DNA of 24,000 nt from Thalassobaculum sp. OXR-137 (GCF_034377285.1 NZ_CP139715.1:4939465-4963464), one strand, 5' to 3'; positions 901 through 14,873 are shown, counted from the stretch's first letter. The notes: generated by a model not told the origin, from the sequence alone. Numbers and translations: made by a program.

Positions 901-2592
901 TCAGTCATCGAACAGATCGAGGTCGAGCCCGAAGGGCCGGCCTCTTTCTTTCGTGCGTTCCCGCTCCAGCTGTCGCTTCTTGTGCATGCGCCAAGCCCGC
1001 TCTAACTGCTCTTTCCGATCATCGGCAAGATTGGCGCGTTTGAGCGCTTTCTCGCTCAGCCGCTCCAGGGCACGTGCACGGGCTGCGATCTTGGCAGCCA
1101 GGCGCTTGCGGAGTTCGGCGGGACTGCCTGCGATATTCTGGATGATCTCCAGTTCCCGTACGGCAGCCTTGGTGCGGCGGCGGGCCTGCTCGATTTCATG
1201 ATGGGCCTGCCCGTGTTTGAGGCGCGCGTCGCGGAGCTTCTGGCGGCGCTGCATGATATAGCGGAATGACTTCTTGGCCTCCGCCCGCTCGCGGGTGCGG
1301 TAATCGCCAATCCGCACCCCCTTGATCGCCCCCAACAGGAAGGGGTCTTTTCGGATGGCGTCTTCGGCCTCCTTGATGCCAAGCTTTTTCTCCAACTCAT
1401 CCCAACGAGCGCGGGCCTTGTTCGCATCCTTGTAGACCTTGGCCAGCCCTTCGAGGAAGCTGGCCTCCCGCTTCGTGATCCAACCTGCCTCCCGCTCGGC
1501 CTGTCTGGCATGCCAGACTTCCTGCTGCTCGGCATAGCGGACCCGACCCTTGCGGCTGCGATAGGCGGCCTCGATCTGTATCCAGTAGCGATAATCCATA
1601 TCGGCCTGGTCGGCACGGCGAACGGCATCGCCTTCCGGCGAGGTGTCGATGTCACCCGCGAGCATGCCCTCGACGGTGCGGCGCTCTTCCGGCTCAAGGT
1701 CACTGGTATCGAGGGCCAGCTGTCCCTCCCGGTCGTCGCGAGCGATCTCGGCCGCACGGCTCGACATGAAGTCGTCGAAGCGCTCCCCGAACCGCTCCTC
1801 CAACGTGTTGAACCTTACCCCCTTACCCATGTCGGAGAGCTTGGCAAACCGCTCGCCGTCGGACAGGATCAGGCCCTGCCCCTTGCGCTCCAGGGTGATG
1901 CCCTTCCGGGTCAGGCGATGGTTCAATTCGGCCCAGGTCCGGGACTGGTAAAAATCGTCCTTCAAACGGCGGCGCAGGTCGGCGGTGGCAACCTTGCCAA
2001 GGGGGATGAGCGCTTCCCGCTCTTCCCGCCGCGCCTTCCAATATTCCCCATCGCTGAGCGCGGGCGCGAGGTCATCGACGTCCCGGCCAAGCTGGCGCTC
2101 GTATTCCCGATTGCGCAGGATATTGAGCCCGTGCTCGCGGGCGAGCTCATGGACAATCCCGGTCAGCCGCTTGCCGTCCTGATGGCGGTCATAGGCGACG
2201 TGCTTTTGCGGATGGATACGGTTCACCAGAAAATGCATGTGCGGATGCTCGGTGTCCTGATGGGAATAGACCATGAGCTGGTGCTCGGTCAGGCCCATGC
2301 GCTCGATGACCTGCTGGGCCACCTTGCGCTTCAGCTCCGGCGTCACCTTCCCCGCCGCCGCGTCCTTCGGATCGAAGGTGATCATGAAGTGATAGGCGGG
2401 CTGTTTGCAGCGGACGGATTTGGCGGCAGTCGCCTCCATCACGGAAGACGCGGCACGGGCGTTGTCGGTGAAGAGATTGCGCACCTCGACAAATTCCACA
2501 CGGTCGGGGCTGAGCCCCTTGATCTCGCCTGCGAGGTAAAGGGCGGATGCCCGGAAGCTCTCCGGCTGTCGGCGTGGAACCTTAAAGCGCAT
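901..2592 (-). CDS. Conjugative relaxase (MobA/VirD2-type relaxase/mobilisation nuclease domain) with long coiled, charged C-terminal region
   Basis: The N-terminal domain has HQDTEHPHMHFLVNRI (HxDxxxPHxH relaxase motif III) and an early Tyr (ALYLAGE). Start chosen at ATG 2592, behind a purine-rich GAGGGGGG stretch. It overlaps the mobC stop by 11 nt, which suggests translational coupling. Confidence 0.85.
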   Translation of the reverse strand: MRFKVPRRQPESFRASALYLAGEIKGLSPDRVEFVEVRNLFTDNARAASSVMEATAAKSVRCKQPAYHFMITFDPKDAAAGKVTPELKRKVAQQVIERMGLTEHQLMVYSHQDTEHPHMHFLVNRIHPQKHVAYDRHQDGKRLTGIVHELAREHGLNILRNREYERQLGRDVDDLAPALSDGEYWKARREEREALIPLGKVATADLRRRLKDDFYQSRTWAELNHRLTRKGITLERKGQGLILSDGERFAKLSDMGKGVRFNTLEERFGERFDDFMSSRAAEIARDDREGQLALDTSDLEPEERRTVEGMLAGDIDTSPEGDAVRRADQADMDYRYWIQIEAAYRSRKGRVRYAEQQEVWHARQAEREAGWITKREASFLEGLAKVYKDANKARARWDELEKKLGIKEAEDAIRKDPFLLGAIKGVRIGDYRTRERAEAKKSFRYIMQRRQKLRDARLKHGQAHHEIEQARRRTKAAVRELEIIQNIAGSPAELRKRLAAKIAARARALERLSEKALKRANLADDRKEQLERAWRMHKKRQLERERTKERGRPFGLDLDLFDD

Positions 2593-3151
2593 CCCCGCCC
2601 CCCTCATCGGGGGACGCATCGGTGTCGGGGTCCTCGTCGATCTGGACGGGCTTTTTGGCGACGGCTTTGTGGAGCGGATCGAGCACCCGGCGCATGATGG
2701 TCAGTGTCTCGTCCCGGTCGGCTGGGTCGATCTCCTTGCCCATGTTTGCCCGCCGCGCCATGGCGTTGATCGCATGCCCGATGCCGTTGATGGCCTCGAT
2801 CTCCCGCTCGATCAGCGGAGCCAGATCGAAGCGGTCGGTGACACGGTTGACCAGCTCGCCGCCGACATAATTTGCCCAGGGGCCATAGGTCTCGTCGCCG
2901 GTCGCCTCGGCCAGCTGACCGAGGTTCGTCGCCATTGAAGTCAGCTCGTAAAGCAGCGCGTCCATGACCTTGTCGCGCTGTGGCCTGACCCGTGGTTTGA
3001 TACCGAGCGCACGGCTGCGGACATAGGTGGCGAAGGGCAGTCCGGCGTCGATGGCGTCGCTCTGAATCTTCCGCCACTCGGCCTCGGTCAGGCGGATATA
3101 ACAGACCTTGGTGCGACGCTCTTCAGGAGCCTTGGGACGCCGTCCGGCCAT
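2582..3151 (-). CDS. mobC: Relaxosome accessory protein MobC
   Basis: The pattern IRLTEAEWRKIQSDA ... TNLGQLAEA resembles the MobC family. It lies immediately upstream of, and overlaps, the relaxase. Start ATG 3151 is preceded by GGGGAGG. The longer track ORF (to 3247) has no SD. Confidence 0.75.
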   Translation of the reverse strand: MAGRRPKAPEERRTKVCYIRLTEAEWRKIQSDAIDAGLPFATYVRSRALGIKPRVRPQRDKVMDALLYELTSMATNLGQLAEATGDETYGPWANYVGGELVNRVTDRFDLAPLIEREIEAINGIGHAINAMARRANMGKEIDPADRDETLTIMRRVLDPLHKAVAKKPVQIDEDPDTDASPDEGGGDAL

Positions 3152-3247
3152 GGGGCTATGCCTCCCCTTCCCCAGACGCCTCGCAGAGCAAGAGGGCTGC
3201 GCTTGAGACCCCGCAAGGGGGTCGAATGCCAGGCCTGTTGAACGCAC

Positions 3248-3360
3248 GAAAATACCCGCTGGACGCCCCTCGGGGGCTGTCCGGCAGGGCAGGCCGCAGG
3301 CCGCCCGTCAGGTATTTTTGTCGATCAACATCCATCTTGCCTCCCTCCTGTCGTTCAAAA
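3248..3360 (+). promoter_or_regulatory. Candidate oriT: long inverted repeat followed by a nic-like CTCCTG/T
   Basis: CGAAAATACC (3248-3257) and GGTATTTTTG (3311-3320) form a 9/10 inverted repeat around a GC hairpin (GGACGCCCC..GGGGCTGTCC). A third AAAAATAC copy lies at 3356-3364. CTCCTG|T at 3345-3351 resembles the MOBP/VirD2 ATCCTG nick core. The site lies upstream of the mobC-relaxase operon. Confidence 0.4.
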
Positions 3361-3612: not shown

Positions 3613-3807
3613 CTAGTAGCCCCATTGTGCGAGCATCTCGACGGCTGAATCTGGATGAACATTGATGGAGTGCCAGAAGCGAATTTCGCCATGGGCACCG
3701 TCGAAGGGGGCGCGGTCGTAGGCCTCGGTAAAGGCTCCGAGAACATATTCGACGTAATGCTGACAGGTCATGTCCCGTACGATCTGGATTGAAGTTGGCT
3801 GGCTCAT
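3613..3807 (-). CDS. Hypothetical small protein (64 aa), leading-region orphan
   Basis: ATG at 3807 is preceded by GAGGAGA at good spacing. The longer track ORFs (to 4128/4192) run through the conserved leader without an SD. No family recognised. Confidence 0.6.
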   Translation of the reverse strand: MSQPTSIQIVRDMTCQHYVEYVLGAFTEAYDRAPFDGAHGEIRFWHSINVHPDSAVEMLAQWGY

Positions 3808-4060
3808 GGTCGGTCTCCTCTTGGGGTTTTTTGGGCCGCACCGTGCGGCCTTCGTGGCCAAGAGTGGGCAACGGCGAAATAGCCTTCCGCACCCGGAGGG
3901 CCGGAACGAAGTGGAGGATGGCAAGGGCCGTCTTTCTTGAAGCGCAGCGACCGCGAGGAATGGCCAGGATCGGGGTCCCCAAGCGACCCGTCGATTGGGG
4001 TGATCGGCCAGGGGAAGAAAGTCGGTTCGCGCCATTGCGGCAGGCGACGCCGATGCCAGA
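3808..4060 (-). promoter_or_regulatory. Conserved structured leader, copy A (contains a ~50-nt expansion hairpin)
   Basis: Alignable with 4633-4875, 7129-7345 and 14373-14585. SD-proximal hairpin GGCCGCA/TGCGGCC at 3834-3850. Blocks GGAGGATGGCAAGG, GTCTTTCTTG, CGCGAGGAA, GGGGAAGAAAGTCGG and GCGCCATTGCGGC are present. Confidence 0.7.
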
Positions 4061-4401
4061 TTGGCCCCAGATCGAAGGCCCGCATCGGTGTGGTTCGTCC
4101 CCAAGGGGATACCGGGCATGGGCGTCACAAAGCCAATTGCGGGACTGGCTCTTCAGGCAGAACGTCATGGGGTGAGACCGAAGTTCGAGCATGCGGCCTT
4201 ACGCCGTTGTCCAGGCACGCCGTTCTTCTGCTCGTCAACGCTCAGCCGTCAAGGTCGTCAGGGTTGGGCAGGTATCTTTGACCGCAACAGCGACGGCATT
4301 CGAAATACTGCGAGCCCGCCAAGGGGACTCGGCGGCAGTGGATGCACAGGATGCCCCGCCGATGTAACGGCGGGGCGCTGCGTCGAAGTGCTGAATGAGG
4401 A

Positions 4402-4632
4402 TCAGGCGGCCATGCGCCAGTCCGTGGCGGGTCGCCTGTGGCGGCGGGCCTCCATCAGGGCGATGGCGCAGCCGATCGGGGTCATGCCGATGTCGAAGGC
4501 GGTGCTGACATCCCGATACTGTTCCTCGGTGAGATCGGCTTCCGCCTCGATCAGGTAGCTGTCCTCCACGGCGATGACGTATTCGTCCCAGCTCATGTCG
4601 AATTGGTTCACGGTGTTGCTCAATCGGGTCAT
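4402..4632 (-). CDS. Hypothetical small acidic protein (76 aa), leading-region orphan
   Basis: ATG at 4632 is preceded by GGAAGGAGGAAAG. The N-terminal ~50 aa are rich in D/E. The longer track ORF (to 4953) overlaps the conserved leader. Confidence 0.6.
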   Translation of the reverse strand: MTRLSNTVNQFDMSWDEYVIAVEDSYLIEAEADLTEEQYRDVSTAFDIGMTPIGCAIALMEARRHRRPATDWRMAA

Positions 4633-4875
4633 GGTCTTTCCTCCTTCCGGTTTGTCCTGGCCGCGACCGCGGCCTTCCATGGGCAACAGAAGGCGGCGGC
4701 ATAGGCGACCGGACGCACCCCAAGAGGCGCGGAGGGGCAAGGCCCCGACCGGGACTTGAAGTGGGCCGGAACGAAGTGGAGGACGGCGAGGACCGTCTTT
4801 CTTGTTTCGCGAGGAAGGTCGAAGACCGGGGAAGAAAGTCGGGCAGCGCCGTTGCGGCGGGAGACGCCGACGCCA
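4633..4875 (-). promoter_or_regulatory. Conserved structured leader, copy B
   Basis: Hairpin GGCCGC/GCGGCC at 4659-4674. TTCCATGGGCAAC block present. Helix GTCTTTCTT (4795-4803) pairs with AAGAAAGTC (4832-4840) and encloses CGCGAGGAA plus hairpin GGTC-GAA-GACC (4817-4827). GCGCCGTTGCGGCG block present. Confidence 0.7.
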
Positions 4876-5063
4876 CGTTTGCCCAATGAGGAAGGCCCGA
4901 CGGTCACGGCCAGCCGGAAGGATGGAAAGCCCCCGATTGAGCATGCCGGTCACCTCGGCAAGCTGGGCACGTCAGCGGGGTTGCTGGTGGACAGGACCAT
5001 AAGTCGAGGAAGCATCACCGAGATCGTATCGGATGCTGCCAGCGCTCAATTGGAGACACGAAC

Positions 5064-5180: not shown

Positions 5181-5279
5181 GGCAAGCCGCAGTTGTCACT
5201 GTCAGTCCCTCTCTCGCGCACCTGCGCATAAGGGTTCACGGCTTGAGCCGGAGGGAATTTAACAAAGTGAGACACGTGC

Positions 5280-6191
5280 ATGCTGGATAAGATTTTTGAT
5301 GCGATAGAAGGCAACGACATCGACGAGCTGAAACGCCTTAAGGAGGCAGGCGGGGACTTCACCCTCGCTAACGAGCATGGCCATACGCCAGCGCATTGGG
5401 CGGCGGGGTCTGGCAATCCAGAGGTGGTGCGCGCTGTCCATGAGGCAGGCGGGGACTTCAACCTCGCTAACGATTATGGCCAGACGCCGGTGCATAGGGC
5501 GGCGGGGTCTGGTAATCCCGAGATTGTACGCGCTGTCCACGAGGTTGGTGGAGACTTCGCCGTCGCTGACAAGTATGGCCGGACGCCGGCGCATAGGGCG
5601 GCGGAGATTGGTAATCCCGAGACCGTGCACGCTGTCCATGAGGCGGGCGGGGACTTCACCCTCGCTGACAAGGATGGTGAGACACCGGCGTATACGGCGG
5701 TGGGGTCCGGTAATCCCGAGATCGTGCGCGCTGTCCATGAAGTAGGCGGGGACTTTACACTCGCTGACAAGTATGGCCGGACGCCAGCGCATCGTGCGGC
5801 GGGGTGTTATATTCCAGAGATGGTGCACGCTGTCCATGAGGCGGGCGGGGACTTCACCCTCGCTGACAATAATAGCCGGATGCCGGCATATTGGGCCGTG
5901 GAGTCTGGTAGTCTGAAGATGGTGAGGCTCGTTGAAGATATCGCCAAAGAGCAGGAGGCAGACAAGCTCCAGACGGCGTTACAGGAGCGGCTTCCTCTGC
6001 CTGAGCCAGACCAGACCAACGAAGATTACCATAGGACCCTGAAGCAGAGGCAAGAGGTGGCCCGTGCTGCTCTGCGTGCGGAGACCGAGGCCAAACTTCG
6101 GAATCATGCCCCCTTGCCTGATCTTGGGCATGATGAAATTGACCCGACTGGTAAGGATGAAGATGACCGTAACGGTACCGATCCCAGATAG
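5280..6191 (+). CDS. Ankyrin-repeat protein (six 33-aa repeats) with charged C-terminal tail
   Basis: The unit G(D/N)..TPaHrAAgSGNPEiVrAVHEaGGDF.lAd repeats six times. It is opposite in orientation to the surrounding leading-region genes. Confidence 0.85.
   Translation: MLDKIFDAIEGNDIDELKRLKEAGGDFTLANEHGHTPAHWAAGSGNPEVVRAVHEAGGDFNLANDYGQTPVHRAAGSGNPEIVRAVHEVGGDFAVADKYGRTPAHRAAEIGNPETVHAVHEAGGDFTLADKDGETPAYTAVGSGNPEIVRAVHEVGGDFTLADKYGRTPAHRAAGCYIPEMVHAVHEAGGDFTLADNNSRMPAYWAVESGSLKMVRLVEDIAKEQEADKLQTALQERLPLPEPDQTNEDYHRTLKQRQEVARAALRAETEAKLRNHAPLPDLGHDEIDPTGKDEDDRNGTDPR
5343..5936 (+). repeat. Six tandem 99-bp repeats (coding, ankyrin units)
   Basis: Units start at 5343, 5442, 5541, 5640, 5739 and 5838, an exact 99-bp period. 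Long identical stretches occur, for example GAGGC(A/G)GGCGGGGACTTCACCCTCGCT. Confidence 0.9.
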
Positions 6192-6831: not shown

Positions 6832-7128
6832 CTAGCGGCTCCAGATGAGGGCGAAGCCCTTGTCCTGCTGCTCGACCAGATTGGCGTAGATCGGAGCGGC
6901 GAAGCTCGGGTCGTCCAGCTTGACCGAGATGTACTCGTTGCCGCCCTTGCTGGTGCGGTGCCAGGCCGCGCCGATTTCGACTGCGCCCGCCTTGATGCGG
7001 AAGTCCGGGGCGGTGTCGGCGGTTTTCTCGACGCTGCTCACGGTGACCTTGGTGGCCTTGAGGCCAAGGGTCTGGATGGTGCCGGCGAAGCCGTTGTCGG
7101 TTTTGGTGAAGGTGCCGATGGTTGCCAT
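6832..7128 (-). CDS. DUF736 family protein (98 aa)
   Basis: MATIGTFTKT..GF.G.I.TL....KV......K....APDFRI.AG.VEIGAAW...SK.G.EYISVKLDDPSF.APIYANL matches my recollection of the DUF736 signature. ATG 7128 is preceded by AAGGAG. Confidence 0.8.
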   Translation of the reverse strand: MATIGTFTKTDNGFAGTIQTLGLKATKVTVSSVEKTADTAPDFRIKAGAVEIGAAWHRTSKGGNEYISVKLDDPSFAAPIYANLVEQQDKGFALIWSR

Positions 7129-7345
7129 GGTGATAGTCTCCTTTGTTTGGTGTCTGGGGGTCGCGCCCTTCGCGACCTTTCCATGGCCAATGTCAGAGAC
7201 CGTCAAAGACCGGGCCTGCACCCGCAGGGACGTAACGGAGTGGGAGGACGGCAAGCGGGCTGTTTCTTGTTTCGCGAGGAATGCGGCAAAGCCGCAGGGG
7301 AAGAAACCGACCGTGCGCCGTTGCAGGCGCGGGCGACGGGCTCAA
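7129..7345 (-). promoter_or_regulatory. Conserved structured leader, copy C
   Basis: Hairpin GGTCGCG/CGCGACC at 7159-7177, compensatory relative to copies B and D. Helix CTGTTTCTT (7260-7268) pairs with AAGAAACCG (7301-7309) and encloses CGCGAGGAA plus hairpin TGCGGC-AAA-GCCGCA (7282-7296). Confidence 0.7.
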
Positions 7346-7586
7346 ATGTGGCCATAAAAGGAAAGGACGTGAGGGGATGCGACCGCACCAAACATGTAGA
7401 AGACTCACCATGGCGGCCTCGATCACCGCCCCCGACAAACGGCGGCCAGCGCGCAATCCCCATGGCCTGAATCACCCTATCGCTGGTGAGGCGGCTCAAG
7501 AAAACGCCCGCCCTGGCTGAAGGCCAAGACGGGTTGTAATCGGCAATGGTGGCCGTCACCGTAACAGGCGGCAAACGGTCAAAATC

Positions 7587-7848: not shown

Positions 7849-9681
7849 TCAGGCGGCCACTTGCGTGGTCTCGCCCTCGCCCGAAACGGCGGGCGTGGGG
7901 TCGCCGTCCGTGTCGTCTGCATTGGCCTCGTCTGCCTCCCCTTCCTGCCACGGCAGGTCAGCCCCCTCGGTCACGGCGGGGAACCGCATGGCATCGGGAA
8001 GCCATGCATTCGCCCGCTTGCGCAGTTCTTCGGGCAAGGTCGCATCGTCCTCGGCAGAGCGCTGGAAATGACGGGCAAGGGCAGCGGCCAGCTGGCTCTT
8101 GCTGTAATCCTTCATCCGCCCAAGACGGGTTATCGCCCCGCTTTCCTTGGCGATGGCCTCCAACTGGTCTTTGCGGCGGCGGGTCAGGAACGCCTCGTCT
8201 GGTGTCCAATGCGCCCGCATCGATACGTCCAGATCGGCGGCAACACGGTTGAACAGGCTGTCAGCTGTATCGAGCGCATCCATATTGCCCTGCCCGAAGG
8301 TCAGCGCCGTCAAAAGCAGATGCAGCTGGTCGAGTTCTCCATCGGAGAAACCCTGCACCACCTCATAAAGGGCGGTCGGGTTTTTGACCTCGGCCAGCAA
8401 CGTCTCCCATGCGCCCCGCACGGGTCGGGCGTAGGATTGACGGCGATTATCCGTCACGCCTATCGCCGTCACCATGTCCTGCGCCTCCCGCTCAAGAGCG
8501 GTGTAGCTGGTCGGCTGGTTGTCCTCCCCTGCGAAGTAAGCAAGGGCGGGATGGGCATCGAGGCGCACCCGTCCTGTCCAGTCAAAGCCGTTCAACAGGC
8601 TGATGACGGCCACCTCCTTGGCCTTGCGGGGATTGGTGAGCAAGGTCTCCATCACGGCAAGGCTCTTGTGGGCATTCATCATGCGGATGACAGGCCCCGA
8701 ATATTCGGGCCGCTCCTTGGGGGCGGTCGGTGCGTCTGCGGTTTCCTCGGCAACAGACGGGGACACGTCACGGCGGACAAGACCTTCTCGCACCTCGACA
8801 CGGCCTGACGGCTTGAAGTGAATGACCACCCCGCTGTGTTCGTCTTCCTCGGCCTCACGATATTGCCACCACGGGGCATAGCTTTCGGTCAGCACCTCAA
8901 CAAAGGCGGCGTTTTCCGCATGGTGTTCGGCAAGGGCGGCGACTGCCGCCTCTTGCAGGGTGAAGAACCACTCCACGTCATCGAAGACGGTGTTGTCGTC
9001 ATCGGCGAACAGGTCGGCGGTGAAACTGCCTTCGTATTGTTCCAGCGGAAAGATAGCCAGAGACACGGCGGGCTTTTCGCCCGTGAGCAAGTGACGCAAG
9101 TCGTCGCCGTCATAGTGATAGCCCTGCTCCAGTCGCTCGATAAGCACTCGTTGCTGGTCGTGGGTGCCAAGGGTCAGCGCCTCGGCGGCGGAAAGGGTAA
9201 TCTCCCCTTCCCGCACAAGGGCTTTCACCTCGTCACAGAGAGAGGCCAGCGCCACACGGCGCTTGACGGTCAACACGGACACCCCTGCCTTGGCGGCGAC
9301 ATCCTCAAGGGATGCGCCCGCCCCCAACAGGGTGGCGAAGGCTTCGGCCTCGTCCATGGGGGCAAGCTGCTCCCGCTGTATGTTCTCGACAGTGGCGAGG
9401 CGCAAGGCATCGGCCTCGCTCAAATCCCCCCGCACCTCGACGGGCACGGGATGGTCTTTGGCGATAGCGTTCCGCTCAACCAACAGGGAGAGCGCCCGAT
9501 AGCGCCGTTCGCCTGAAACAATCTCGAACTTGCGCCCCTTCTTGCGCACCACAAGGTTTTGCAAAAGGCCGTCCGTCAGGATGGATGCGGCCAGCCCTTC
9601 AAGGGCGGTGGCATCCATGCTGCGGCGGGGATTGCCCTCGGCGGCGGTGATTTTGGTCAGTGGTATGGTTTGAATGGTCAT
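7849..9681 (-). CDS. Large ParB/Spo0J N-terminal-domain protein (ParB-like nuclease/CTPase fold), 610 aa
   Basis: IVSGERRYRA box together with NPRR and an HTH-like segment. ATG 9681 lies 8 nt after GAGGA; the track start at 9696 lacks an SD. Confidence 0.8.
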   Translation of the reverse strand: MTIQTIPLTKITAAEGNPRRSMDATALEGLAASILTDGLLQNLVVRKKGRKFEIVSGERRYRALSLLVERNAIAKDHPVPVEVRGDLSEADALRLATVENIQREQLAPMDEAEAFATLLGAGASLEDVAAKAGVSVLTVKRRVALASLCDEVKALVREGEITLSAAEALTLGTHDQQRVLIERLEQGYHYDGDDLRHLLTGEKPAVSLAIFPLEQYEGSFTADLFADDDNTVFDDVEWFFTLQEAAVAALAEHHAENAAFVEVLTESYAPWWQYREAEEDEHSGVVIHFKPSGRVEVREGLVRRDVSPSVAEETADAPTAPKERPEYSGPVIRMMNAHKSLAVMETLLTNPRKAKEVAVISLLNGFDWTGRVRLDAHPALAYFAGEDNQPTSYTALEREAQDMVTAIGVTDNRRQSYARPVRGAWETLLAEVKNPTALYEVVQGFSDGELDQLHLLLTALTFGQGNMDALDTADSLFNRVAADLDVSMRAHWTPDEAFLTRRRKDQLEAIAKESGAITRLGRMKDYSKSQLAAALARHFQRSAEDDATLPEELRKRANAWLPDAMRFPAVTEGADLPWQEGEADEANADDTDGDPTPAVSGEGETTQVAA

Positions 9682-9743
9682 AGTTTTAATCCTCATATTG
9701 GGTTGATTGCCCCCAGCCCTGACCGTCAGGGCGGGGGCATGGG

Positions 9744-10106
9744 TCAGGCGACGATGCGCCCCTTGCTTGATGCTTCGGCGGCATAGGCCGTCAGGCTCTT
9801 GGTTGGCTTGAAATGGCGGTCACGCTCGATGGTCAGCCCTGCGGGGCCACGCACGGCGGCAAGCTCCGACAGGCGCACGCTCCCCAGTTCGGGGCATCCG
9901 AACCCAAGGTCACAAAGCCCGAAGGCAATGTCCTCGTCTTCGGGATCGAGTTCGGACATAAGCCACGTTGCCGCTCCCCATGGGCAGAACAGCTTGACCA
10001 CAGGCCAGAAGTCCTGGGTGTTGCCATCGTCGGCCATGCGTTCGGCATTGGCTTTGCCATTTTTCAGCATGCGAGCATGCTGGTCGGATAGGAGAAGCGT
10101 GCTCAT
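9744..10106 (-). CDS. DUF2958 family protein
   Basis: VVKLFCPWGAATWLMSELDPEDEDIAFGLCDLGFGCPELGSVRLSELAAVRGPAGLTIERDRHF fits the DUF2958 pattern as I recall it. GGGAGG lies 7 nt upstream of the ATG. Confidence 0.75.
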   Translation of the reverse strand: MSTLLLSDQHARMLKNGKANAERMADDGNTQDFWPVVKLFCPWGAATWLMSELDPEDEDIAFGLCDLGFGCPELGSVRLSELAAVRGPAGLTIERDRHFKPTKSLTAYAAEASSKGRIVA

Positions 10107-10330: not shown

Positions 10331-10760
10331 GTCGGTTTGTCCTTCCGTCGAGTTGTTCAATTCTGCGAAGGACACCCACGCCCCGCGCATGAACCTCTGC
10401 CCAGCGGCGAGCGACGACGACAAACCAGTGACAACAGGGAGAACAGGCGTTCAGGCGGCGAAGCGCCGACATCCGACGGGCTCCAAGAGAGCCGCGCCGC
10501 AAAGCGGCGGCATCCGGCCAACACGGGACCCCCGACTTGATCGGGGGGAACGGAGCGGGCAGGCCGGACGGCGACCTTGGAAAAGACCGGCGGGGTCGGC
10601 ACAAGCTGGACAGAGAGGTTACAAGCGCGAAGCGCAACCCAACAGGTCAACGCCGTCCCGCAGGGACGACATTATGGGGCGTTGCGGGGCATCCCCGCAG
10701 AAGGGGTGACGGAAACGCCGATAGGTGGTTGCAGGCAGGGGAAGGCGTTCCCCGCCTAAA
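10331..10760 (-). other. ~430-nt non-coding, hairpin-dense region upstream of the 75aa-DUF2958-ParB operon
   Basis: At least six short GC hairpins. Examples: GCCGC-AAA-GCGGC, CCCCCGA-CTTGA-TCGGGGG, GCGC-GAA-GCGC, GTCCC-GCA-GGGAC, CGGGG-CAT-CCCCG. There is partial similarity (GGAACGGAGCGGG..GGACGGCGACC..AAGACCGG) to the leader family. Confidence 0.45.
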
Positions 10761-10855: not shown

Positions 10856-11275
10856 ATGCCGGACCTGCGAACCATCGAGATCGACTTCGAAGTACACAAA
10901 ATCATCGAGCTTGAGCGGAAGAGCTTCTCGGAGACCCCAAACGAAGTGCTGCGTCGATTATTGAAGGTGAGTGGAAAGCGCCCCTCACTCCAACCACAGA
11001 AAGCGACAACCGGACGCCCCTGGTCGGGTAAAGGCGTGACGCTGCCACACGGTACAGAACTTCAGATGGATTATAATGGTCGCCAGTACACGGGGGCCAT
11101 CGACAATGGTGAATGGGTTGTTGAAGGTCAGCGGTTCAAGAGCCCGTCCGCTGCGGCTGGTGGTGTCGCTGTGACCAAGAGCGGAAAACATACCAACCTG
11201 GACGGCTGGAACTATTGGCAGGCCAAACGCCCCGGCGATACAGACTGGGTCGCAATAAAGGACATGCGGCGCTAA
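10856..11275 (+). CDS. Small DNA-binding protein: SeqA-N-like ribbon-helix-helix N-terminus + RAMA/DUF4357-like C-terminus
   Basis: RTIEIDFEVHKIIELERKSFSETPNEVLRRLLK aligns by eye with E. coli SeqA residues 2-35 ([33 protein letters not shown]). The C-terminal F.SPSAAAGGV......NLDGWNYW pattern is typical of restriction/methylase-associated RAMA-type domains. AAAGGA SD present. Confidence 0.7.
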   Translation: MPDLRTIEIDFEVHKIIELERKSFSETPNEVLRRLLKVSGKRPSLQPQKATTGRPWSGKGVTLPHGTELQMDYNGRQYTGAIDNGEWVVEGQRFKSPSAAAGGVAVTKSGKHTNLDGWNYWQAKRPGDTDWVAIKDMRR

Positions 11276-11300
11276 AGGCACGCGTCAGGAGAATGAACCC

Positions 11301-12512
11301 GTGGTCGATATAAGCAAGCTGAACAAAGCTGCGCGCGCAGCCCAGAAACTGACCGAGCAGCACCAAGGTACGATCGAGGCGGCGCAACGTATTGCCCACA
11401 GCCCGGCCATGCAGGCCATGAAGGCGCTCCAGGAGAACTCCGCGGTAACTCGATTAATGGCCGATATGGAGCGCCATCAAGCGCTCATTCGTGCCGCACA
11501 AGGGCCATTTGAAGAGTTGCGCAGATCAGGCGTTTTCAACCACGCCTCCGCCCTGCAAGAGCAACTCCGCCCAGTTCGGGAGATAATAGACGCGTTCAAT
11601 GCACGGTTCACCCTGCCGGAGGTGCCCGCCGCGGTGAAGCTCATGCAGGAGTTCCAGCAGAGTCCTGCGGCTGAGGCGATAGCGAGATATGCAACACGGG
11701 CTGACGAGATCCAGCGTGCCATGGAAGCCATGCACACGCCGTGGTTGGATGCGCAAGAGACCCTGCGGTCAGTGACAGGCTTCGCGGAAATACAGGGCAT
11801 TGGCAGAATGCTTGAGAACATGCCTGCCTTTGACGACGCCGTTTGCAAAGCGCTCCGGGTCGATCTTGGCGACTGGCGGGACAAGATTACCTGGCCGGAG
11901 CCGGTGTTGACGGACCTGGTCGCACGTGAGGCCTTTTACGTTGACTTAGGCTTTGACACGTCCCTTACCGACTTCCCGGCCCCGGCGTTTCGAGAAAGCA
12001 CCGAGATCGCCGGCCTGCGACGTGCACCGCCCCCGGTCGTGACCGCCTACGGTGAGCCTATCCCACGCATTGAAACCGATGAGGAAGAGGAAGCATTCAC
12101 CCTGACCAACGTCGCGCACGATTGGCTACAACGTTTTGAGTTCCATCTGAGAAACTTCATCGATGCTCGGATGACTGAAGCTTTTGGCCGAGAGTGGCCG
12201 AAACATCAACTACCGAACGGCGTCTATGATCAGTGGATGGCGAAGCGCGACGCTGCGGTGAAAGCCGGGAGGCAGGCGCTTCAATTGATTGCCTATGCCG
12301 ATTTCACGGACTACGAGCGTGTGATCTGCAAGAAGGATAACTGGCGTCAGGTGTTCCACATCTACTTCGTTCGCCAAGAGAACGTCCGCGAGAGCTTCCA
12401 GCGGCTGCATCCGATCCGCTTAGACACCATGCACGCGCGCCCAATTATTCAGGACGACGAGATACTTCTGTATGTTGAAGTGAAGCGTTTCACTAAAATA
12501 TTTTTTAGCTAA
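11301..12512 (+). CDS. Helical N-terminal domain + C-terminal Swt1-like HEPN domain protein (predicted RNase)
   Basis: GTG start lies 7 nt after AGGAGAA. The C-terminal ~120 aa (FEFHLRNFIDARM..GREW......IAYADFTDYERVI...NW..F...F......F.RLHPIRLDTMHARP) match the Swt1-like HEPN pattern. The Rx4H motif is R373-H378 (nt 12417-12434). Confidence 0.7.
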   Translation: MVDISKLNKAARAAQKLTEQHQGTIEAAQRIAHSPAMQAMKALQENSAVTRLMADMERHQALIRAAQGPFEELRRSGVFNHASALQEQLRPVREIIDAFNARFTLPEVPAAVKLMQEFQQSPAAEAIARYATRADEIQRAMEAMHTPWLDAQETLRSVTGFAEIQGIGRMLENMPAFDDAVCKALRVDLGDWRDKITWPEPVLTDLVAREAFYVDLGFDTSLTDFPAPAFRESTEIAGLRRAPPPVVTAYGEPIPRIETDEEEEAFTLTNVAHDWLQRFEFHLRNFIDARMTEAFGREWPKHQLPNGVYDQWMAKRDAAVKAGRQALQLIAYADFTDYERVICKKDNWRQVFHIYFVRQENVRESFQRLHPIRLDTMHARPIIQDDEILLYVEVKRFTKIFFS

Positions 12513-12523
12513 GGAGTAATTCC

Positions 12524-13396
12524 ATGCAGGATGACGCAAGGTCAGACGATGAAATTCAATTAGCGGCGAGGCATCTCTTCGAAGGTGTTGTGCCAGAACG
12601 CTCTGCTGAGCTGATCGCGCTATGGAAGCAATACCAGCCCAAGTTTCATCTCCTCTCGGATGATGGTCCGGATGGGATGTTTGTCATGGCCGCTGGCCGA
12701 TATCGCGACGTCGCATTCAATCACCGAGCTCTGAGGGCCTTTTGGTTAGCAGCCTTTATCGCGTGGGAAGGCTATCTGCGGGTCCACGAAGTAGCGACGA
12801 ATGGTTCGGCTGATTTCGACCGGTTCGATGACATGGTTAATCTTTTCGCCCGCATACTAGCCGAAGAAGACCCGTCAAGCGTTCCATTGCCGCAAGGCGT
12901 GTCGGAGCCTGGGCATTACACTGATGCGAAGCAATCTCCTCAAGAAAGGGCGGCAGCCGAACTGGCAACCTTTGCCACCGGCTGGGCGTTTCTGCATGAG
13001 ATTAGACATATAAAACACCAGCAGGAAGGTACCGGCGCCGCACCTGATGATCCGGTGGAGAAGCACCACGAGGAAGAGCTGTCGTGCGATGAATATGCAA
13101 CGACTTTCATACTTGATGGTGTCGACCAGTATGCCCAGACCGAAAACGTGGATTCGGAGAAAGTCAGGCAAAAGCGCGAATTGGGCATCTACTTTGCCCA
13201 GTTCGCGATGACCTTAATCGGCGCGGGTTACTGGGACGCGTCGGATACACACCCGGCGATGCAAAAGCGTATAGACGCGACCATTAAGCTAATGGGCGGC
13301 TCAGGGACACGCATGTCTGATGCCGTTGCCCACGCGGCATTTGCAGCCCTTTGGCGTAAATGGCCGGATGCGCCTGGCCCATTTCGGGCCTCATAG
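12524..13396 (+). CDS. HExxH zincin metallopeptidase-like protein (ImmA/IrrE-like arrangement)
   Basis: HEIRH at aa 158-162 (nt 12995-13009) is followed ~20 aa later by EEELSCDEYAT, a possible third ligand or E..A motif. AAGGAG SD overlaps the upstream stop, so the operon is tightly coupled. Confidence 0.65.
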   Translation: MQDDARSDDEIQLAARHLFEGVVPERSAELIALWKQYQPKFHLLSDDGPDGMFVMAAGRYRDVAFNHRALRAFWLAAFIAWEGYLRVHEVATNGSADFDRFDDMVNLFARILAEEDPSSVPLPQGVSEPGHYTDAKQSPQERAAAELATFATGWAFLHEIRHIKHQQEGTGAAPDDPVEKHHEEELSCDEYATTFILDGVDQYAQTENVDSEKVRQKRELGIYFAQFAMTLIGAGYWDASDTHPAMQKRIDATIKLMGGSGTRMSDAVAHAAFAALWRKWPDAPGPFRAS

Positions 13397-13463: not shown

Positions 13464-14372
13464 CTAAGCGGCGGCCTCGGTGATATCGGTGGCTTGCAGC
13501 CCCGCCAAATAGTCGGTCGCCTTGGCGGCCTGACTTGCGGCGGTGAAGATGGCCTTCTTGTCGGCTTTCAGGACCTTCAGCCAGTTGTCGATGTAGGCGG
13601 CATGGTCGGGGCGCGGTTCCAGCGTGATCCCAAGGTCAGCACAGAGGAAGGCAGCGCCCAGCTCGGCCACGAGTTCTTCGACGGCATAGGCGTCATCGCC
13701 GAAACGTTTGCCGAATTCACGGTCGCAGCGCTTGGCACAGCCGGTCCAATGGGTCAGCTCATGAAGCAGAGTGCCATAGTAGCTTTCCGTCGCCGTGCTG
13801 GTTTCCGTGCCCATGAAGCGCTCGCGCTCGGGCATCTGGATGAAGTCATCAGGGAAGCGGTAGAAGGCGCGGTTGCCACCGTGGCGGATATCGACCCCTG
13901 TGGCTGCGATGAAGGCTTCGGCTGCGTCGTGGATTTGCGCCGGGTCTTTCGGTTCCGGCAATGGCGGGGCTTCGAACCCGTCCACCTGATCGGCGTTAAA
14001 GACGTAGCTGGCGCGGGCCATGAGGCGTTTGCCATGTTCGGTCTCGCCGTCGTCCTTCTGCTCTTCCACGTCGAATTCTTTGTAGAAGACCACGAGGCTG
14101 GATTTCTCGCCCTTGCGGACCTGACAGCCCTTGTTCTGCCATTGGCGATAGGTGCCCCAGGTGCCGGTCGAGAAGCCGCGTGCTTGGGCTGAGGCCCAGA
14201 GGCTGACGACGTTGATCCCGCGATAGGCGTTGGTGGTGTCGATGTTGACGGGGCGGTTCAAGCCTTGGCCTGAGCGGTGCCAGGGCATCTGCCAGTCACC
14301 GGCTCCGGCTTCGATGGCGGCGATGATGGTGTTGGTCACTTGGGTGTAAACGTCTTGGCGTTCGGTCTTCAT
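13464..14372 (-). CDS. ardC: ArdC-type antirestriction protein (ssDNA-binding N-domain + zincin HExxH C-domain)
   Basis: N-terminal pattern W..PW......P.N..T...YRGINV..LW, and C-terminal LLHELTHWTG. ATG 14372 is preceded by AAGGAGAG. The track extension to 14567 runs into the conserved leader. Confidence 0.85.
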   Translation of the reverse strand: MKTERQDVYTQVTNTIIAAIEAGAGDWQMPWHRSGQGLNRPVNIDTTNAYRGINVVSLWASAQARGFSTGTWGTYRQWQNKGCQVRKGEKSSLVVFYKEFDVEEQKDDGETEHGKRLMARASYVFNADQVDGFEAPPLPEPKDPAQIHDAAEAFIAATGVDIRHGGNRAFYRFPDDFIQMPERERFMGTETSTATESYYGTLLHELTHWTGCAKRCDREFGKRFGDDAYAVEELVAELGAAFLCADLGITLEPRPDHAAYIDNWLKVLKADKKAIFTAASQAAKATDYLAGLQATDITEAAA

Positions 14373-14585
14373 GGTCTCTCTCCTTGTCTTTGCGGGCCGC
14401 GCCCATCGCGGCCGTCCGATGGCGACCGGAAAGGCAGGGGCAAAGACGAGCGGCGCACCCGGCACGGGCCGGAGAGAAACGAAGGACGGAGAGCGGGCTG
14501 TTTCTTGCCTCGCGAGGAATGACCAAAGGTCAGGGGATGAAACTGACTGGGAACCGTTGCGCGGCACGGCGTCCCTGCCAGGTCA
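14373..14585 (-). promoter_or_regulatory. Conserved structured leader, copy D (upstream of ardC)
   Basis: Hairpin GGCCGCG/CGCGGCC at 14395-14413. Blocks GGACGGAGAGCGGGCTGTTTCTTGCCTCGCGAGGAA present. Hairpin TGACC-AAA-GGTCA at 14520-14532. Blocks GGGGATGAAACTG and AACCGTTGCGCGGC present. Confidence 0.7.
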
Positions 14586-14873
14586 AGCCAGATATGAGGA
14601 CGGCTCGTGGGCAGCGGTCAGCGACAAGGGCAAGTGAGGCCGGAAGATCAACCCGTAGACGCGGCCCCAAAACGACAACGCCCCCGCGATAGAGGACGGG
14701 GCCGTTGCTTCAGAGATTAATGCACTGGCGTGCGCATCGAAGGCTTATGGACCGCGCCAAAATCCGGCACCTGACAGCCTTCAACGGGCATCTTGTCTGC
14801 CGTTGGGGCAAGCCGCCACAAAATCTAGGCAAACGGCGCAAACCGGGCTAAAAATGGCAGATGGAATCTGTAT

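Follow-up and report, generated by a model that had tools for sequence, protein, structure and literature searches.

A 24,000-nucleotide (nt) stretch of DNA from Thalassobaculum sp. OXR-137 (GCF_034377285.1 NZ_CP139715.1:4939465-4963464), which was analysed at its full length and is called the window below, contains four long leaders, one of them in front of the gene ardC. Repeat finding and alignment showed that the leaders are four copies of one repeat family, each abutting the start codon of a gene on the minus strand. We propose that they belong to a widespread alphaproteobacterial element that works in single-stranded form on the strand transferred by conjugative plasmids and by integrative and conjugative elements (ICEs), and that this element represents a new class of promoter or initiation element for single-stranded DNA, found in Alphaproteobacteria. 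The probability of this reading is roughly 0.55. The proposal is built on a hairpin maintained by compensatory changes, on the strand that is selected to fold, and on the predicted direction of transfer. Positions are counted on the + strand of the window, in which the copies and the parts of the copy in front of ardC are located as follows:

3802-4121, + strand: copy A, upstream of a 64-amino-acid (aa) open reading frame (ORF); nhmmer E = 7.8e-24
4617-4943, + strand: copy B, upstream of a 76-aa ORF; nhmmer matches split in two, E = 2.1e-21 and 1e-3
7120-7418, + strand: copy C, upstream of a DUF736 gene; nhmmer E = 3.9e-29
14376-14638, + strand: copy D, upstream of ardC; nhmmer E = 7.7e-29
14498-14545, + strand: core of copy D with helix S4, the unpaired block, the apical mini-hairpin and CAGGGGA; (near-)invariant columns of alignment A2
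14485-14489, + strand: 5' side of helix S3 in copy D (GACGG), in long-range pairing with 14554-14558 (CCGTT)
14554-14562, + strand: 3' sides of helices S3 and S2 in copy D, CCGTTGCGC; GTTGC is near-invariant in the family

Every copy in the window folds as one long imperfect hairpin. The hairpin of copy D is formed by ~263 nt of the + strand, and its base abuts the ATG of ardC (14372-14370, minus strand). Folded as DNA, copy D reaches -64.3 kcal/mol (z = -2.97) on the + strand and -53.9 kcal/mol (z = -1.72) on the minus strand. An earlier note on this sequence placed the ardC element at 14373-14585; a foldable leader is present there, and it extends somewhat past 14585. Within the core of copy D, helix S4 joins 14498-14506 to 14537-14545, and the conserved unpaired block TCGCGAGGAATG occupies 14510-14521. 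Copy A, which is ~480 nt from the inverted repeat of the candidate origin of transfer (oriT), has an insertion of ~50 nt at the apex of its DNA fold. Copy B contains an extra insertion in the 5' arm and has the apical triloop c(GAA)g, and in copy C the basal helix includes the bases complementary to the ribosome-binding site (RBS) and to the start codon. Copies B and C also contain local hairpins (4778-4801 and 7246-7265, + strand) followed by TTTCTTGTTT, which are intrinsic-terminator-like by score. These hairpins compete with the long-range helices S3 and S4, and they are not kept in the family because the same bases form S3 and S4 across it. The helix quoted in the earlier note is among these local pairings.

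According to the earlier note, each transcription unit on the minus strand is led by a foldable element. Four of the units are led by the repeat family, and the fifth, the DUF2958-ParB operon, has another kind of foldable region in front of it; a profile search of the window found no fifth or degenerate copy upstream of this operon. The region in front of the operon (10415-10760) folds to -87.7 kcal/mol (z = -5.0) on the + strand, compared with -78.8 kcal/mol (z = -4.45) on the minus strand. It differs from the element in sequence class, shows hardly any conservation in plasmids, with one weak plasmid match (Magnetospira), and may represent a second transferred-strand element unrelated to the first.

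A scan of one genome per species with a 17-base core pattern identified at least 120 loci besides the window, and all family counts, alignments and folds reported here refer to the copies from the window and from these loci. A search by nhmmer, with a profile made from relatives, finds at least 158 copies of the element in this set. The loci listed are nearly all from Alphaproteobacteria, namely Hyphomicrobiales, Sphingomonadales, Caulobacterales, Acetobacteraceae and Rhodospirillales. A few of the contigs listed are from elsewhere, in metagenome-assembled genomes (MAGs) of Thauera (L026), Acidobacteriaceae (L038) and Paludibacteraceae (L059), which could be due to horizontal transfer of a conjugative element or to mis-binning. 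Ti-type plasmids, ICEMlSym-like symbiosis islands and many further elements of Alphaproteobacteria have the family in their backbone. The element was found by blastn in 29 plasmids, and it is annotated in only one of them, where the match overlaps a hypothetical protein. The core pattern has two matches among 2.9 million viral contigs. Comparison of the window with Rfam gave no match at gathering thresholds, and chance-level matches only at E up to 10.

The hairpin has a fixed position relative to the gene. In 124 of 126 copies the long-range hairpin could be delimited; its median span is 279 nt, and the median distance between its base and the start codon is 4 nt. In 110 of the 124, the basal helix encloses the complement of the RBS. 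Covariation was evaluated for a structure of 42 pairs in 81 cores less than 93% identical, using a structure-blind alignment (A2). Standard pairs occupy 90.2% of the cells, as opposed to 78.9% in shuffles, and 34 of the 42 pairs have changes on both sides. The covariation score is 0.348, a value that none of 500 shuffles reaches (0.165 in shuffles), and controls with slid partners stay at or below 0.122. Compensatory changes that preserve pairing are present in 335 cells, which indicates that the pairing is intramolecular. The clearest covariation is in S4, which is CTTTCTT/AAGAAAG in most copies and CTATTTT/AAAATAG in a second subfamily. Helix S3 corresponds to alignment pairs 138-144 with 275-281, and its terminal G:T pair (138/281; 14485/14558 in copy D) is present in 81 of 81 sequences. 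Two other approaches to the structure were of limited use. All-against-all column pairing that allowed both wobble types was too noisy to be used directly, yet it pointed to real helices, and alifold with G:U forbidden, meant to give a strand-neutral structure, was too strict and left 7 pairs only.

In the second subfamily, the apical block is TCGCGATGCAAAG. Examples are L108 (5291-5496), L010 (2678-2865), L094 (107-291) and L063 (4513-4697). The loci with a copy of this subfamily each also carry a standard copy ~2 kb away.

The strand on which the element folds is decisive because an mRNA leader and a transferred-strand element predict opposite strands. In the tested helices, the strand antisense to the genes, which is the + strand in the window, has 367 G:T pairs and 58 A:C oppositions; without the two constant G:T positions the counts are 213 and 58. 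G:T exceeds A:C at 23 pairs and the reverse holds at 8 (sign test p = 0.011). Standard pairing amounts to 80.9% when the same helices are read on the sense strand. An independent profile alignment, made in gene-sense orientation, gave the mirror result of 234 A:C versus 51 G:U. In consensus folding with alifold, the antisense strand reaches -23.6 to -25.3 and the sense strand -5 to -10.6. When segments of 330 nt were folded as DNA, the antisense strand was the more stable one in 119 of 127 copies, with a mean advantage of 7.7 kcal/mol, or 3.4 kcal/mol after subtraction of the shuffle means, and mean z values of -4.3 for the antisense and -3.2 for the sense strand. The basal helix over the RBS follows the same trend, with 147 wobble pairs on the antisense strand versus 46. 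The earlier note had noticed G:T wobbles on the + strand in a single helix (GATGG/CCGTC, ACGG/CTGT). The preference extends to the whole family, but the quoted helix is a local alternative pairing, and across the family its ACGG segment pairs at long range with CCGT of the other arm (14485-14489/14554-14558 in copy D). Selection acts on the strand antisense to the genes, and not on the mRNA strand.

The apical loops have the same polarity. Of 115 loops, read on the antisense strand, GNA triloops account for 54, with a closing C:G pair in 43, and GNRA loops for nine. The mirror form was found in none of the 115, and no GNA or GNRA loop is present on the sense strand. Mini-hairpins of the GCGNAGC type are extraordinarily stable as DNA and much less so as RNA, and they are present at sites of initiation on single-stranded DNA, among them the phage G4 origin, RSF1010 ssiA and the early promoters of phage N4 (PMC13037366). 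The prevalence of GNA over GNRA loops, 54 to 9, fits DNA better than RNA.

The direction of transfer can be predicted from the rule that the relaxase is encoded in the lagging region, the last part to reach the recipient (PMC11541004). The following features of the window bear on the prediction:

901-2619, minus strand: MobA/VirD2-type relaxase (Pfam PF03432, PF22863), reads away from oriT
2582-3247, minus strand: NikA/MobC-like accessory gene (Pfam PF21983, PF05713 (weak)), reads away from oriT
3246..3340, + strand: candidate oriT, inverted repeat followed by ATCCAT, with a putative nick position
3613-3807, minus strand: 64-aa ORF without family match, led by copy A
4402-4632, minus strand: 76-aa ORF without family match, led by copy B
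6832-7128, minus strand: DUF736 gene (Pfam PF05284, 1.7e-33), led by copy C
7849-9696, minus strand: ParB-like gene (protein-family scan)
9744-10106, minus strand: DUF2958 gene (protein-family scan)
13464-14372, minus strand: ardC, with an ArdC N-terminal domain (PF08401, 6.5e-41) and a zincin-like metallopeptidase domain (PF18818, 2.8e-53), led by copy D

The claim of the earlier note that a relaxase/mobC operon diverges from a candidate oriT at ~3250-3350 is borne out, as both genes are on the minus strand and read away from the inverted-repeat region. The inverted repeat, with arms of 28 nt (3246-3273/3294-3321), is within the intergenic region behind the accessory and relaxase genes, and a reading of the sequence places ATCCAT on the + strand 8 nt after it. 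An inverted repeat followed by the nick region on the transferred strand is the RP4-type order, and the agreement of the oriT candidate with it is weak evidence. Gene architecture, together with the weak ATCC motif, suggests that the + strand is nicked, near position 3330.

The backbone genes at 3.5-14.4 kb are on the minus strand and point to the oriT region, with the exception of a plus-strand island at 10856-13396. The earlier statement that all backbone genes have this orientation is thus correct for the 64-aa and 76-aa ORFs and for the DUF736, ParB-like, DUF2958 and ArdC genes, and incorrect for the island. The three genes of the island encode a RAMA/SeqA-N-like protein, a Swt1-like HEPN-domain protein (PADLOC PDC-M34B) and a Lit-like peptidase U49 (PADLOC Lit, 1e-14), and the island resembles a cargo cassette for defence or abortive infection. 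Between copies B and C, a unit of 99 nt is repeated in tandem at 5244-6023, in six to eight copies with 62-82% identity to the reference copy. The repeats are inside overlapping ORFs on the minus (5259-5837) and plus (5280-6191) strands, and the product translated from the repeat region has no family match. Genes of a type IV coupling protein, RepA and ParA come after ardC in the window, as identified by protein-family scans.

The genes led by the element point to oriT from the side opposite to the relaxase in the window and in L122, L123, L124, L125, L126, L127 and L131. The replicons that share this layout with the window include three of the Ti type with traA/traC (Aminobacter pUSP3, Hartmannibacter HDIAp1 and a Roseibium plasmid), a Methylocystis plasmid, Beijerinckiaceae RH AL1, an ICEMlSym-like Bradyrhizobium plasmid and a Sinorhizobium plasmid with Ti-type traC/traD. 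The folding strand is therefore the predicted transferred strand in the eight replicons with an unambiguous oriT or relaxase layout. Two further replicons are compatible with the prediction, though less clear. In a Peteryoungia plasmid (L121) the element is co-directional with the relaxase but distant from it, and the layout of a Methylocapsa plasmid (L132), which has two oppositely oriented relaxases, is ambiguous.

The genes downstream of the element are of the kind expected in a leading region. Among 146 copies with a callable downstream ORF, 105 precede DUF736, 32 precede a YAcAr/SLOG-domain protein of ~310 aa (DUF2493 in RefSeq annotation), and three precede ArdC, whereas two, both of them in the window, lead small ORFs without family assignment. 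Overall, at least five unrelated gene families lie downstream of element copies. DUF736 (msi110) is universally present in the backbone of ICEMlSymR7A-type elements (PMC8627217). In 35 of 37 multi-copy loci the copies have the same orientation.

Based on these observations, a mechanism of action can be proposed for the element as a single-stranded-DNA promoter or initiation element. The + strand would enter the recipient 5'-first from the nick near 3330, and each intergenic segment of ~280 nt would fold back on the entering strand into the long imperfect hairpin. The apical module of the hairpin would consist of the CTTTCTT/AAGAAAG helix, the unpaired TCGCGAGGAATG and the mini-hairpin with the GNA triloop. 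The duplex part may serve as a double-stranded entry site for the polymerase on DNA that is otherwise single-stranded. RNA synthesis would then proceed down the 5' arm, which is the template of the gene, and would provide mRNA for ArdC, DUF736, YAcAr or the small ORFs before a complementary strand exists. The same RNA could also prime the synthesis of the complementary strand, as with Frpo of plasmid F. Conversion to double-stranded DNA would remove the hairpin and so switch the element off. On this model, RNA polymerase would initiate inside the hairpin, and the resulting expression would be early and transient.

The earlier note had regarded the leaders as Frpo-like promoters. The conserved structure, the selection on the antisense strand, the predicted transfer of that strand, the co-orientation of copies, the leading-region character of the genes and an asymmetry of the kind present in Frpo are consistent with this view, but no -35/-10 pair was recognised. 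A consensus scan around the four copies found no sigma-70 -35/-10 pair on either arm, and the same scan finds nothing in Frpo1 or Frpo2 either. Because it is equally negative on these known promoters, the scan decides nothing. The 3' arm contains a conserved GGAAG...CGTT (14533-14558; A2 columns 253-281), the last T of which is always opposite a G in the hairpin. Its likeness to EcfG or other extracytoplasmic-function (ECF) promoters may be fortuitous, since the spacer varies from 14 to 18 nt. As a candidate, an ECF/EcfG-like promoter (alphaproteobacterial consensus GGAAC-N16-CGTT) is weak and was rejected, with the hallmark C of GGAAC absent and the spacer variable. The sigma-54 spacing TGGCAC-N5-TTGC, read by eye, was also rejected, as it fits copy A only and is not conserved.

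Several points weigh against a single-stranded-DNA promoter or initiation element. Besides the negative sigma-70 scan, the sole candidate motif, GGAAG-N-CGTT, has a spacer of 14-18 nt. The base of the hairpin covers the RBS, which would also suit a translational role in the mRNA. The nick site and the transferred strand are predictions from gene architecture and the weak ATCC motif. The sequences are phylogenetically related, so that the counts are not independent. A C to T bias on the transferred strand could inflate G:T, and the control at synonymous sites of DUF736 had two usable sites, too few to correct for it; such mutation bias cannot explain the asymmetry of the loops or the compensatory changes. 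Finally, L089 (443-6157) and L045 (4346-5469) are the two of the 37 multi-copy loci in which copies have opposite orientations, which may reflect adjacent elements or inversions.

A more specific proposal, which we regard as tentative and rather doubtful, is that the element forms a fourth promoter class, alphaproteobacterial and confined in its activity to single-stranded DNA, that does not mimic a sigma-70 -35/-10 duplex and combines recognition of the apical module with a lock on the RBS. Recognition would take place through an invariant module composed of CTTTCTTG-N-CTCGCGAGGAATG, the GNA mini-hairpin, CAGGGGAAGAAAG and the GTTGC junction, in which the G:T is invariant. The factor that recognises the module could be the host polymerase, working in an unusual mode, an alternative sigma factor, or a protein that arrives together with the DNA. 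Because the base of the hairpin contains the RBS, read-through mRNA from the double-stranded plasmid would be translationally silent, and the genes would therefore be expressed only during entry.

It is unlikely that the element serves for priming only, in the manner of ssi or sso sites, with a primase or RNA polymerase making a short primer on the transferred-strand hairpin that has no role in the expression of the adjacent gene. The element has features that such a site would share, as it is a strand-specific hairpin of single-stranded DNA with apical c(GNA)g mini-hairpins like those of the phage G4 origin and RSF1010 ssiA, and the consensus scan found no promoter boxes in it. Some relatives have genes for Toprim-domain proteins close to the element, and Frpo itself also primes DNA synthesis (PMC12672017). 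However, a priming site needs neither a base so close to the start codon (median 4 nt, 124 of 126 copies), always in an orientation compatible with the gene sense, nor one copy per transcription unit. The window has four copies within 11 kb, each heading a separate unit, and protein-family scans recognised no primase gene in it.

It is quite improbable that the element functions mainly as an mRNA 5' leader, in which the sense RNA would fold and an anti-Shine-Dalgarno segment far upstream would sequester the RBS, as in a riboregulator or thermosensor. A basal helix that covers the RBS, as it does in 110 of 124 copies, and the motifs CCUCC and UUCCUC on the sense strand would be expected of such a leader, and the sense strand does fold better than shuffled sequence (z = -3.2). 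Nevertheless, the wobble pairs are on the other strand (367 versus 58), the alifold energies favour that strand by -23.6 to -25.3 over -5 to -10.6, and even the basal helix, where sequestration would take place, favours it. The GNA apical loops are confined to the antisense strand, and the leader matches no Rfam family. A role in the mRNA could coexist with the proposed function on single-stranded DNA, as a secondary silencing of read-through transcripts.

The folding strand is antisense to the gene, and the + strand of copies B and C has local hairpins with a T-rich run after them, as would be expected if a cis-antisense RNA read across the leader paired with the 5' untranslated region of the gene, similar to FinP or Sok. 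We consider this explanation very unlikely. A + strand RNA containing both arms must start inside the coding regions of at least five unrelated genes, where no promoter-like site was found. The terminator-like hairpins are not conserved, their bases being those that form S3 and S4, and the excess of GNA triloops over GNRA tetraloops (54 to 9) is a better fit to DNA. A strict relation to the polarity of transfer is also not expected of an antisense RNA. Least probable is a feature of double-stranded DNA, such as a palindromic protein-binding site or a cruciform-like or repetitive extragenic palindromic (REP)-like repeat without single-stranded function. The element is indeed an intergenic palindrome that recurs and contains conserved blocks of sequence, but the compensatory changes in 335 cells indicate intramolecular pairing, and a double-stranded site, being strand-symmetric, cannot explain the asymmetry of G:T over A:C or of the loops.

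Through early expression from the incoming single strand, plasmids bring anti-restriction and establishment functions into play ahead of the defences of the host. Such expression has been demonstrated only for enterobacterial IncF and IncI plasmids, and the present family, well delimited and with at least 158 copies, is a candidate for a like mechanism in another clade. Its copies single out DUF736, YAcAr/DUF2493 and the two small ORFs as candidate early-acting establishment or anti-defence genes. The asymmetry of wobble pairs combined with GNA loops provides a computational signature by which such elements may be recognised without sequence homology.

Frpo of plasmid F, one of the nearest known parallels, was folded as a positive control. 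The transferred strand of Frpo2 folds to -89.1 kcal/mol (z = -5.9) and its complement to -81.6 (z = -4.5); for Frpo1 the values are -93.2 (z = -6.1) and -86.1 (z = -3.8). In the same folds, both are hairpins of ~300 nt located upstream of leading genes. Because the F controls fold alike, the size, the position and the ~7 kcal/mol asymmetry of the alphaproteobacterial element match those of Frpo. The sequences are unrelated, as the earlier note had correctly judged: a blastn comparison of Frpo1 and Frpo2 with the window and the at least 120 loci gave no match at E up to 1, and the best match of the family hidden Markov model (HMM) in the F leading region, with E of 0.1, is inside the ssb coding region. 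Similar to Frpo1/Frpo2 (ssiD) of F and ssi1-3 of ColIb-P9 and pESBL, which form class 1, the element is a long imperfect hairpin of the transferred strand in the leading region. As in class 1, several copies are present per leading region, and the downstream genes, which have establishment or anti-restriction functions, read that strand as template. Unlike Frpo2, in which the hairpin starts ~47 nt from ssb, the base of the element reaches the RBS and the start codon, at a median distance of 4 nt. It also differs from class 1 in its alphaproteobacterial rather than Enterobacteriaceae hosts, in having no recognisable -35/-10/UP arrangement, and in its conserved apical module with the GNA mini-hairpin.

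Origins of the phage G4 type, RSF1010 ssiA/ssiB and rolling-circle sso sites are likewise strand-specific hairpins that are active only when single-stranded, and they contain c(GNA)g or GCGNAGC-type mini-hairpins, as does the element. They differ in being short (40-150 nt) or untied to gene starts, and in being recognised by a primase or giving rise to a short primer only, whereas the element is ~280 nt long and fixed at start codons. The STAXI RNA motif of Rfam and others are conserved structured elements near ssb, antirestriction or integrase genes of mobile elements; the element resembles them in this respect, without a match in Rfam.

Promoters active on single-stranded DNA are established in F and IncI1 plasmids, where three sequence-unrelated classes have starts mapped by 5' rapid amplification of cDNA ends (5' RACE) and are present in multiple copies per leading region (PMC9849209; PMC12672017). 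In large-scale searches, such promoters were sought by BLAST similarity to five known sequences and by E. coli consensus boxes (PMC11541004), and in the literature we found no report of an alphaproteobacterial single-stranded-DNA promoter or of a DUF736/msi110 leader. Class 2 (ardA/klcA) and class 3 (M.EcoGIX) of pESBL and F are also hairpins of unrelated sequence upstream of anti-restriction genes (PMC12672017). Unlike the element, they are enterobacterial, have starts mapped by 5' RACE, and are described as reconstituting -35/-10 boxes (PMC12672017). Since the hairpins of classes 2 and 3 are unrelated in sequence and yet do the same job, there is precedent for several independent promoter classes. 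The leading genes of pESBL are poorly induced in Sinorhizobium meliloti, and the authors of that 2025 study suggest that the promoters are not recognised in distant hosts such as this (PMC12672017), which implies that other clades need classes of their own.

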